A stretch of 64,000 bases of DNA, taken from NCBI GenBank assembly GCA_963727895.1, contig CAVSHT010000013.1, positions 96,001 through 160,000 of the forward strand, in the 5' to 3' direction. Below the pieces are notes generated by a model. It worked only from the letters and a program-made list of their open reading frames with translations, was not told the origin of the DNA and searched no databases. The first letter of the stretch is position 1. Each line of letters starts with the position of its first letter. Shown here in pieces: positions 7,726 to 10,748 of this stretch. A program made the translations under genes and the position numbers. Source of the DNA: an uncultured Methanosarcinaceae archaeon (lineage in GTDB: Archaea; Halobacteriota; Methanosarcinia; Methanosarcinales; Methanosarcinaceae).

Positions 7726-8532
7726 TTATAATAATTTAATTTTTTCAAGGAAGTTTGCAAGCTTTTTGATTTCACTCAGTTCAAAATTAAGTTCTTTGCC
7801 TTTAAGAGACGCTTTAAAAACTTCTCTTTCTTCTGGAATTTCAGCTACTATATTCTCAGAGTTCACTGAAGCCAGCATTTCATCTCTTATATCCGGTTCA
7901 ACTTTATTAAGCACAAAATAAACCTTGCATCCACACTGTGCACCGAACTCATGGAACTTATTTGATAGCCTGAGAGATTCGTAGGAAGGATCAACAACCA
8001 CCAGAATTAGGTCAAAGTCTTTATCAACTCCGCGCCCAAAGTGTTCAGTGCCAGCCTCTGTATCCACGATTACAATATCTTCTTTTCCCAGATCAAGATT
8101 CTCAAGAAACTCCCTTGTCAGAACTCCCATAGGACACGCACAGCCCTCTCCAAAGTCATGGATTTTTCCAACAGCCATCAGCTTGACTCCATTCTTTTCT
8201 TCAACAGATTCCGCTGGAATGTCGGAAAAATTCCCTCTCTTATTAAAAAAGCGGGATTGTTGTGCCGGCTTTGAAGTACTTCCATTGGCTGCAAGCCCCA
8301 AAAATTGCGTTTTTTTCGGGGAAGCCCTTTGTTTTTCCTTAAAGCCTTTTTTTCCTCCAAAATATCCCATAAGATCTTTTGGAGCAGCCATTCCTAACTG
8401 ACTGTGCAGCCCGTAATTGGACTCGTCAATATCAAGCACAAGCACATTTTTAGTTTTTGCCATTTCTTTTGCGAGGAGAGCCGAGATAGTACTTTTTCCG
8501 CTTCCTCCTTTCCCGCACACTGCTATTTTCAT
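7726..8532 (-). CDS. CooC/AcsF-like nickel-insertion ATPase (MinD/ParA family)
   Basis: GKGGSGKS Walker A, GCACP metal motif, DTEAGTEHFGRG. Confidence 0.88.
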   Translation of the reverse strand: MKIAVCGKGGSGKSTISALLAKEMAKTKNVLVLDIDESNYGLHSQLGMAAPKDLMGYFGGKKGFKEKQRASPKKTQFLGLAANGSTSKPAQQSRFFNKRGNFSDIPAESVEEKNGVKLMAVGKIHDFGEGCACPMGVLTREFLENLDLGKEDIVIVDTEAGTEHFGRGVDKDFDLILVVVDPSYESLRLSNKFHEFGAQCGCKVYFVLNKVEPDIRDEMLASVNSENIVAEIPEEREVFKASLKGKELNFELSEIKKLANFLEKIKLL

Positions 8533-8967
8533 GTCCAGTTCACCTACCTCAGTAATTTATTCTGCTGAATTAAAAACGCTTCCTTTTAACATCTTCTTTT
8601 CTGAAATCTTTTCTGAAAAATCGGATCAAAGAAAAGAGAAAAATAGTCTCCATAAAAAATATACTAATAGAAAGGACAACAAAATGATAGCCAGATAAAT
8701 ATGAGACTGGAAATCAAGAATGAATATAGGCACTGAAAAAAATTACCGTTTTTAAATGGAGATTAACAAATAGCCATGGAAAAGCAAAAGATATGAAAAC
8801 TTCTTTCCAGATGGCAGGTTGGAAATTTAAGGGGTGAGCGAATCCCCATAAAGAATTATAGGTTTTCAGTATATAATTGAATATGTTTTGATTTTTATGG
8901 CAATTCGTGTATTTGGGCTCTTCTTTCCTTTAATGAGTTTACAACCTGATTAAAAAGAACAATCTTT

Positions 8968-9025
8968 GTGCCTCAGAACTCATAGGGCTCATCATGAAAT
9001 CAGCAAAATTTTTCATCACAGGCAC
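8968..9025 (-). ncRNA. Box C/D guide sRNA, predicted to guide Cm34 of intron-containing tRNA-Met (sR-tMet-like)
   Basis: Minus strand reads GUGCC-U-GUGAUGA(C)-AAAAUUUUG-CUGA(D')-UUUC-AUGAUGA(C')-GCCCUAUGAGUU-CUGA(D)-GGCAC, with a 5-bp terminal stem. Confidence 0.88.
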
Positions 9026-9124
9026 TCAATTGATATTTACACAATGTACACAATCAATATAAGAAGTACCTAAGAAGTATCTCTATAATAAAAAGGTCTT
9101 AAAAACCTGTCTTAACAAGGCTAT

Positions 9125-9790
9125 TCAATTTTTTCCCTTGATTTCTGCCTCAATTTCAGCAGCAATTTTGCGGGCAGCTTCTCTGGGGGACTCTGCTTTG
9201 TAAATGCTTCTTCCCACGATTACCCAGTCTGCACCTGCAGCAATAACATCAGATGCTTTTCCTCCCTGCACACCGACTCCAGGCGAGATTATAGTAAGTT
9301 TGTCACCGATAATTTTCCGAATATTTTTTACTCTTTCCGGTCTGGTCGCAGGGGCTACCAGGCCGAAAGATCCTGCGTCGACTGCCATCCTTGTAATTAC
9401 TTCTCCGACAGGCTGAAGGAATTCAGATCCTCCAGGGTGGCTCATTTCACTTACTACGAAAACACTTTTCTTGTACTCGGAAGCAACCTCAATACAGGCA
9501 TCAAGACTGTCACGGCCTGTAAAGCCCTGGGCAATGATGGCATCAGCTCCTGCCTTAAAGACCTGCTCGCAAATGAGGCGGTTGGTATTGGGGATATCTG
9601 CAATCTTGAAATCAGCTATTATTGGAGCGAATTTAGCAAGTTCCCTGACAATTCCAAGTCCGGTAGCAAGGACAAGAGGATAGCCCACTTTAATGGCATC
9701 TACAAATTCCGAGACATCTTCTGCAATTCTAAGTGCTTCTTTTCTATCGGTAACATCCAGAGCAAGAATCATACAGTTTTTTCTTTCCAT
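9125..9790 (-). CDS. pyrF: Orotidine 5'-phosphate decarboxylase
   Basis: [33 protein letters not shown] 9790 follows GAGGTGA. Confidence 0.96.
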
Positions 9791-9794
9791 AAAA

Positions 9795-10748
9795 TCACCT
9801 CTTTGAAAGGCGCGTACGTACAGCCGCAACCATAAGGGGGAGAGTTATTGTTGCGTCTGCGTATACAGTTACAGCTTTTGCATTTTCTCCTACCTTTCCC
9901 CAGGATTGAGCTTCATCAAGGGTTGCTCCACTCAGGCCGCCGGTTTCAGGATGATCCATTGTTAACTGAATTGCATAGTCGAAAGATTTGGGAGTCACAA
10001 GCATGGACTGCAGGATATAGTTTTTGGGAACACCGCCACCAAGCAGCAGAGCCCCTGCACTTTCAGCGGCATAGCAGATTTCCATAAACTCATGCATATC
10101 AGCAAATGCGTCAACATGAAGAGGATTTCCTTCCTTGTAGAGCCAGGCCTGAAGCCCTATAACTGAATCCTGAAGAGCAGGGCAATACACAGGTACACCC
10201 ACCTCAGCTGCCGTTTTCAGGATTGAGGAATCATCATTGAGGTTCTTTCCTATTTCGGTAAGCACCTGCCGGATAGAAAGTTTTTCTTTAGGAAGCCCGG
10301 AATATACACTCTGCAAAAATTCCTCAAGGTCTGTAAAATGCTGATCAGGAAGATAAACATCGTAAATTCTGTCAATGCATTCATCCCTTAGCTGAATGTC
10401 GTTTGCACAGTCTGTTCCCTTATAATGGTGAAGGCCCAGAGCTTCAACAGTATCGTGTACCATATTGGCACCGGTTGTCACAAGAACATCGATATAACCA
10501 TCACGAATCAAATCAGCAACAATATTTCTCATGCCTGCAGGAGTCATTGCCCCTGCAAGCCCAAAAAATTTAGTAGTTTTCTCTGAAGCCAGCATTTCAT
10601 GGTAGATATCCACGGCTTTAGCCAGCCTGCCAGCTCCAAAGGCACAGCCTTTGTATTCCCTTACAAGCTCGTCAACACTCATATTGGGATTGATCTTTGC
10701 AGATTTTATTGGGGTTGAAAGTTTTTTGTTTGGAGTATTACAATCCAT
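9795..10748 (-). CDS. dys: Deoxyhypusine synthase
   Basis: [34 protein letters not shown] motifs. Confidence 0.93.

Follow-up and report, generated by a model that had tools for sequence, protein, structure and literature searches.

An unannotated box C/D sRNA of Methanosarcinaceae predicted to guide methylation of wobble C34 in intron-containing pre-tRNA-Met

Results

Anatomy and surroundings of the sRNA gene

The stretch of DNA analyzed here, which we refer to as the window, comprises 64,000 nucleotides of a contig from an uncultured archaeon of the family Methanosarcinaceae. On its minus strand, between pyrF and a gene for a P-loop NTPase, lies a 58-nt sequence with the complete anatomy of an archaeal box C/D sRNA (Table 1). 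The original prediction had described four perfect boxes enclosed by a GUGCC/GGCAC stem within these 58 nt, a description that is exact on reading of the sequence, and a single U separates the 5' strand of the stem from box C on the minus strand. It had also named the surrounding region as the pyrF-cooC intergenic space. The pyrF half of this designation is borne out by its protein family match (PF00215, 173.6 bits), whereas cooC can be upheld only to the level of a CooC/MinD-type P-loop NTPase. A CooC-type gene also follows the 3' end of the sRNA in another genome of the set, G010.

Table 1. Positions of the sRNA, its parts and its neighbors in the window, and of loci in related genomes that bear on integration
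Feature	Position (window unless stated)	Strand	Basis or remark
CooC/MinD-type P-loop NTPase, downstream neighbor	7726..8532	-	PF01656 CbiA, 40.7 bits
T-rich run TTCTTTTT, possible archaeal oligo-T terminator	8952..8959	-	Motif in the sequence, 9-16 nt downstream of sRNA
Whole box C/D sRNA, 58 nt	8968..9025	-	Sequence, covariance-model match and sub-threshold Rfam matches
Terminal stem, 3' half, GGCAC	8968..8972	-	Covaries with 5' half
Box D, CUGA	8973..8976	-	Invariant in 27/27 homologues
D guide, 12 nt, GCCCUAUGAGUU	8977..8988	-	N+5 base is G at 8981
Box C', AUGAUGA	8989..8995	-	UGAUGA core unchanged in 27/27
D'-C' loop, UUUC	8996..8999	-	Sequence and length variable among homologues
Box D', CUGA	9000..9003	-	Invariant in 27/27 aligned homologues
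D' spacer/guide, 9 nt, AAAAUUUUG, probably orphan	9004..9012	-	3' half variable within genus
Box C, GUGAUGA	9013..9019	-	UGAUGA core (nearly) invariant in 27 homologues
Terminal stem, 5' half, GUGCC	9021..9025	-	Pairs with 8968-8972
TATA-like TTATATT, possible own promoter	9056..9062	-	Motif in the sequence, 31-37 nt upstream of sRNA
pyrF, orotidine-5'-phosphate decarboxylase, upstream neighbor	9125..9829	-	PF00215, 173.6 bits
Element loci in G017	L075, G017:C15:30000-37700; L074, G017:C15:13300-14300		
Loci listed for the integration pattern	L010, L017, L019, L021, L024, L083, L091, L092, L094; L073 (G004)		

A search of both strands of the 3.67-Mb genome with a strict four-box pattern returned two matches, namely this sRNA and a second element on contig C12 that is described below, and the same pattern found nothing in any of 20 block shuffles of the genome. 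The four-box element is far beyond chance. Guides of archaeal C/D sRNAs are typically about 12 nt long, and the D guide has exactly this length; the D' spacer, at 9 nt in the genus and 10-12 nt in other families, makes the D' half depart from this norm.

The TATA-like sequence upstream of the gene has a counterpart among close relatives, where the motif TTCTTATATT is found at the same distance upstream of the sRNA in a subset of same-genus loci. The T-rich run on the other side fits the general picture of archaeal transcription termination at oligo-T stretches. Together, the TATA-like motif and the T-rich run suggest that the sRNA would be made as an independent transcript from which short flanks are trimmed. 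An extended helix joining the leader and trailer of the sRNA was also considered and is not claimed, because it is weak in the organism's own fold (z of -1.6, with 15 of 200 shuffles equally good) and its downstream partner in relatives is part of the integration-site repeat treated below.

Conservation and covariation

Strong blastn matches to the sRNA were obtained in 23 of 24 genomes of the same genus and in 4 genomes from three other families, where the matching part was the half running from box C' through the guide to box D. The sole same-genus genome that gave no strong blastn match is an 81%-complete assembly of 520 contigs. A covariance model (R1) was built from an alignment of 27 homologues and found a full-length match (model positions 1-58, E-value of 1.8e-8 or better) in all 151 sampled genomes of the class, a sample that spans 27 genera and 5 families. 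The organism's own sRNA scores 89.4 bits over model positions 1-58 (G000:C13:104968-105025, minus strand, corresponding to window positions 8968-9025).

Within the alignment of 27 homologues the D-guide core CCCUAUGAGU and the boxes are invariant (box C invariant or nearly so); the flanks vary, and so do the D'-C' loop and the 3' half of the D' spacer. The same core CCCUAUGAGU is kept in 22/22 further loci that were read from the covariance-model matches. The terminal stem shows compensatory changes: 99.3% of its 135 cells are paired among the 27 homologues, compared with 9-59% in slid controls; changes on both sides occur in two of the five pairs; and the covariation score was reached by none of 500 shuffles. 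Covariants of the GUGCC/GGCAC stem include AUGCC/GGCAU, ACGCC/GGCGU and GCGUC/GGUGC, and the 22 loci beyond the alignment add GCGCC/GGCGC and UUGCC/GGCAA. The identification of the element as a box C/D sRNA, which had originally been made from a single sequence, is thus confirmed by the invariance of the boxes and D guide, by the covarying stem and by the presence of the RNA in every genome sampled.

At three loci in other families of the order (L033, L034 and L036, in G036, G027 and G028, respectively), the sRNA, as read by eye, starts at or within the 3' end of an upstream pyrF-like frame, and box C seems to supply the stop codon of that frame. Linkage between the sRNA and pyrF looks old on this comparison of loci and, if the by-eye reading of pyrF holds, would predate the promoter-like TATA motif of the genus.

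Relationship to annotated sRNA families

At gathering thresholds, Rfam returned no matches in the whole window. A permissive scan placed the sRNA strand against the full sR41 model (RF01126, model positions 1-53) with 46.2 bits against a gathering threshold of 54 (E-value of 4e-10), against sR-tMet (RF02163) with 27.8 bits against a threshold of 50 (E-value of 0.0014), and against sR3 with 27.9 bits. The D guide GAGCCCUAUGAG is aligned identically in the sR41 and sR-tMet consensus sequences, and this common guide upholds the kinship with haloarchaeal sR-tMet that had been proposed at the outset. The sRNA is 'hidden' only from threshold-based annotation. Judged by its sequence, it is an unannotated member of the known sR-tMet/sR41 system and not a new mechanism.

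The haloarchaeal sR-tMet, represented by Haloferax volcanii (RF02163) and listed in PMC4033218, shares with the present RNA an identically aligned D-guide core, GAGCCCUAUGAGU, as well as the kind of target, an intron-containing elongator pre-tRNA-Met with C34 at the N+5 position (here shown in relatives). Both are encoded by a separate, 'exonic' gene outside the intron (PMC2584109). They differ in build: the haloarchaeal consensus has degenerate boxes and 72 positions with a large insert, whereas this RNA has four perfect boxes in 58 nt. The Pyrococcus sR41 (RF01126) is the best Rfam match and is alike in size (53 versus 58 positions), box layout and D guide, but differs in the D' spacer and at both ends, and the score lies below its gathering threshold. 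A Pyrococcus guide for Cm34 of tRNA-Met is named sR49 in PMC2584109, which does not imply its identity with the sR41 of Rfam, and PMC7994747 lists a Pyrococcus sRNA directed at the first position of the tRNA-Met anticodon.

The wider setting of these guides is given by Grosjean et al. (PMC2584109), who describe Cm34 of intron-containing tRNA-Met as being guided by an exonic C/D sRNA, cite the prediction for Pyrococcus, and report 18 such guide candidates across the archaea. According to the same source, part of the intron pairs with the guide, such that methylation must precede splicing. No paper naming a Methanosarcina tRNA-Met guide was found in the literature searched; the genus may already figure among the 18 candidates of PMC2584109.

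The elongator pre-tRNA-Met of relatives

The predicted target was found in related genomes. In G004, a complete genome of the same genus, a 111-nt tRNA match is called by ARAGORN as a tRNA-Met(cat) of 74 bases with a 37-nt intron, which is inserted after the A following the anticodon (A37) and begins with GGG. The gene for elongator tRNA-Met was found in 19/24 same-genus genomes and in 15/16 genomes of other families. All 20 of the same-genus copies given to ARAGORN were called as tRNA-Met(cat) with an intron of 36-39 nt after A37, starting with GGG. For the other families, 11 loci were read via their blastn alignments and 4 further matches were left unread; every one of the 11 carries CCAGACUCAUAGGG at the anticodon/intron junction, the remainder of the intron diverges, and ARAGORN called a tRNA at none of them. 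The CAU tRNA with an intron at 37/38 beginning with GGG, whose existence the original prediction had presupposed, is therefore present in relatives.

In 23/23 genomes that hold both genes, guide and target form an unbroken run of 10 or more Watson-Crick pairs that places C34 at N+5, and the paired region extends over tRNA positions 31-37 and the first three bases of the intron. The N+5 pair itself is a Watson-Crick G-C in each of the 23 genomes. The arithmetic behind the prediction was right in that G at 8981 pairs with the C of CAU in RACUCAUAGGGY, and the placement of C34 at N+5 is reproduced wherever the two genes could be compared. The claim that the whole 12-nt guide is complementary to this sequence needs amendment: the real target, GACUCAUAGGGA, offers 10 Watson-Crick pairs and one G-U pair rather than 12 of 12, with one terminal mismatch, in most genomes. 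Two variant guides are known from the set, namely UCCCUAUGAGUC in G023, with 12/12 pairs to the target, and GCCCUAUGAGUC in G006, with 11/12. As we read these sequences, both variants are shifts towards better pairing with the target.

Once the tRNA is spliced, 8 pairs with the guide are left, and 9 Watson-Crick pairs are the criterion used by Lui et al. (PMC6009581). The guide would be unable to hold the spliced tRNA well, since three of its pairs lie in the intron.

The junctions were also inspected by eye for the structure that is recognized in splicing. Bases 32-35 (CUCA) can pair with a conserved UGAG near the 3' end of the intron, and intron bases 2-3 (GG) with the CC that immediately precedes UGAG, which together give a bulge-helix-bulge motif. 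The minimum-free-energy fold of a relative's pre-tRNA contained no cloverleaf with a splicing motif, and in it the anticodon was paired with the intron. In a separate observation, the introns of 19 tRNA-Met copies of the same genus (L042-L059) contain UAUGAG and then GGCGUC, a combination whose complement spans the 5' strand of the anticodon stem together with the anticodon loop. The sRNA guide, too, contains the hexamer UAUGAG, so the intron copy might be an internal 'guide mimic' in competition with the sRNA; in L060 (G018), AAUAAG stands in its place.

Target searches in the organism's own genome

In the organism's own assembly, which is 84% complete, no exact or near-exact tRNA target was found, and the sole exact match to the target pattern is the complement of the sRNA itself. 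When up to two mismatches were allowed, 134 matches were returned, compared with 192 for a reversed control pattern. The two matches with one mismatch lie in ordinary sequence and not in a tRNA. With introns allowed, ARAGORN found in this genome only two CAU tRNAs, both of them intron-less; archaea are stated always to have three (PMC2584109). A DNA search of the assembly with a relative's pre-tRNA returned chance-level matches only, and the flanks of the relatives' tRNA-Met loci led to no syntenic place or contig end. We regard the missing elongator tRNA-Met as a gap rather than a contradiction because of the incompleteness of the assembly. Since the gene is missing, the pairing is known from relatives and not from the organism itself. 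Among the other tRNA calls in this genome, a tRNA-Pyl(CTA) on C12 fits a pyrrolysine-using methanogen, and a tRNA-Val with a 1528-nt 'intron' (C5) and a tRNA-SeC (C17) both look false.

Against the organism's own rRNAs and tRNAs, the D guide has a best rRNA match of 8 pairs, and its best tRNA matches are rich in G-U pairs. The D' guide gave no match to an rRNA or to a real tRNA of the organism. The suggestion that the D' guide is vestigial or orphan is a reasonable one in view of its 9-nt length, its variability among close relatives and this lack of a match.

Machinery, other C/D elements and expression

The genome encodes fibrillarin (287 bits), an adjoining Nop5 (Nop domain, 182.7 bits) and L7Ae (93.8 bits). 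Three C/D elements were found in it: this sRNA, the intron of tRNA-Trp and the C12 sRNA. A member of the same order likewise has three C/D sRNAs by Northern blot and a C/D guide in its tRNA-Trp intron (PMC5378194, PMC5499594).

The organism's own tRNA-Trp(CCA) (G000:C7:46077-46270, minus strand) has a 118-nt intron with box C, D' and D motifs, and on these motifs we identify the intron as the known intron-encoded C/D guide. That guide, which is responsible for Cm34 and Um39, resembles the present sRNA in its use of the same machinery and in the methylation of C34 of an intron-containing precursor. It differs in being carried by the intron of the very tRNA that it targets and in using both guides, whereas the sRNA studied here is a separate gene with one guide.

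The second sRNA (G000:C12:22089-22139, minus strand) was the only other match to the four-box pattern. Its 12-nt D' guide forms 9 Watson-Crick pairs with the organism's own 23S rRNA around position 1939 (in the 23S gene as defined by Rfam), and its 10-nt D guide is without a clear target in the organism's rRNAs and tRNAs. The haloarchaeal 23S Gm guide of PMC2584109 may be its counterpart.

Small shares of the region are contained in 8 metatranscriptome runs. Contigs assembled from 4 of these runs cover parts of 8864-9400 with 90-99% identity; such contigs cannot show ends, strand or transcription, and carry-over of DNA is possible. They include read-through from pyrF into the sRNA, and two of them stop at 9023, which supports neither view of the transcript.

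A candidate integration site at the 3' end of the sRNA gene

Comparison of same-genus loci pointed to a possible second role for this gene. A stretch of 23.8 kb in G017 is bounded on both sides by a 27-nt direct repeat of the sRNA 3' end, which runs from the eighth-last base of the guide through box D and the 3' strand of the stem to 10 bases past the gene. The stretch starts 50 nt past the sRNA with an integrase (PF00589) and also encodes a DUF927 protein. An open reading frame of 390-397 aa that is homologous to the G017 integrase is found 50 nt after the sRNA in 9/35 same-genus sRNA loci, and partial copies of the sRNA 3' end in a conserved element-end context occur in 5/24 same-genus genomes. 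A copy of 17 nt of the sRNA 3' end was seen in G004 at a distance of 6 kb; the intervening DNA holds no integrase.

From these repeats and integrase genes we lean towards the view that the invariant 3' part of the sRNA gene is used, in the fashion of tRNA genes, as an attachment site for tyrosine-integrase elements in the genus, in addition to guiding Cm34. The attachment part would begin within the guide, 8 bases before box D, take in box D and the 3' stem, and end at most 10 bases past the stem. Positions 8952-8977 of the window look like an empty site, in which the sRNA is followed by the CooC-type gene as in G010. In a 2021 review of archaeal tyrosine recombinases, a full-text term search found neither 'snoRNA' nor 'non-coding RNA' as targets, and a literature search listed no paper in which a C/D sRNA gene serves as attachment site.

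Discussion

Taken as a whole, the findings are best explained by an sRNA that guides Cm34 formation on intron-containing pre-tRNA-Met, and we consider this reading very probable. Established here are the anatomy and conservation of the RNA, the covariation of its stem, the complementarity of guide and target in relatives, and the presence of the three protein genes. From these we infer the assembly of the complex, the methylation, its order relative to splicing and the ends of the transcript. Once assembled with L7Ae, Nop5 and fibrillarin, the sRNA would act in trans: the D guide would span the exon-intron junction of the elongator pre-tRNA-Met, pairing from position 30 or 31 to position 37 and on through the first three intron bases, GGG. 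Fibrillarin is then predicted to 2'-O-methylate the wobble C34, the base that faces the guide nucleotide five positions upstream of box D. Methylation should precede splicing, because the landing site of the guide is the same sequence that must fold for splicing, and the two events would be mutually exclusive on one molecule. The D' half most likely serves as a structural second k-loop only and is without a target, given its drifting 9-nt spacer and the lack of an rRNA or tRNA match. The conservation of GGG at the start of the intron is no proof by itself of selection by the guide, since the splicing helix, as read by eye, also needs GGG.

The overlap between the guide's site and the splicing structure lends itself to a different reading, in which the sRNA acts as a chaperone or timing device that holds the anticodon/intron junction open and thereby delays or orders splicing, with methylation secondary or absent. 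The guide site does overlap the central helix and the 5' bulge of the by-eye splicing motif, so that binding and folding would exclude each other, and PMC6009581 describes guide-target pairs that are conserved seemingly for the interaction itself and not for the methylation. Those cases are mismatched at N+5, however, whereas the N+5 pair here is Watson-Crick in all 23 genomes with both genes. Four perfect boxes and a fibrillarin gene in the genome also argue for methylation, and the homologous Haloferax guide is reported to methylate C34 (Joardar 2011, as cited in PMC4033218 and PMC6601510); we therefore hold the chaperone or timing role to be improbable. The guide might instead act on spliced or intron-less CAU tRNAs, that is, on mature elongator tRNA-Met, initiator tRNA-Met or the CAU tRNA-Ile, rather than being specific for the precursor. 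The mature elongator still offers eight contiguous pairs, and an initiator-like tRNA of the organism gives a run of 8 with two G-U pairs. Eight pairs are nevertheless short of the 9 Watson-Crick pairs applied in PMC6009581, and the three guide Cs whose only partners lie in the intron are kept in 27/27 homologues and in 22/22 further loci, although these positions could drift freely if the mature tRNA were all that counted, which makes action on such tRNAs decidedly improbable.

Archaeal C/D guides are mostly directed at rRNA, and an 8-pair match to the organism's own 23S rRNA exists, so one may ask whether the sRNA targets an rRNA site, or an mRNA, and matches tRNA-Met by coincidence. This best rRNA match has an internal G-U pair and mismatches on both sides, compared with 10-12 pairs with the pre-tRNA-Met in every relative, and two curated Rfam families share this guide, one of them bearing the name of tRNA-Met. 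We give a coincidental match very little credence. Contigs from RNA libraries that run through from pyrF could further be taken to mean that the element is a chance cluster of motifs or part of the pyrF 3'-UTR or terminator and not an RNA gene at all. Since none of the 20 shuffles contains such a pattern and 151/151 genomes hold the RNA, and since the boxes are invariant and the stem covaries between diverging flanks, such a reading is effectively refuted by conservation. We accordingly return to guided methylation of C34 on the precursor as the preferred reading.

The discovery value of the sRNA itself is small, since the guide, its target and the logic of their interaction have been described for haloarchaea and predicted for Pyrococcus. 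An RNA found in every one of the 151 sampled genomes of the class nonetheless scores below both Rfam gathering thresholds and is for this reason missed by routine annotation, a gap that could be mended with the alignment and covariance model obtained here. If its use as an integration site is true, the sRNA gene would add a new type to the attachment targets of archaea.

Cm34 of elongator tRNA-Met is conserved from archaea to humans. Human SNORD97 and SCARNA97 (PMC6601510) do the same job on C34 of elongator tRNA-Met and are likened to the archaeal guide by function; they are eukaryotic and intron-encoded in host genes, with two cooperating guides and a target that is not an intron-bearing precursor. 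In the archaea studied here, the guide core stays unchanged from family to family, as do the first three bases of an intron that diverges elsewhere, such that guide and intron fix each other. The genus includes genetically tractable relatives, in which the role of Cm34 in elongator tRNA-Met is accessible.
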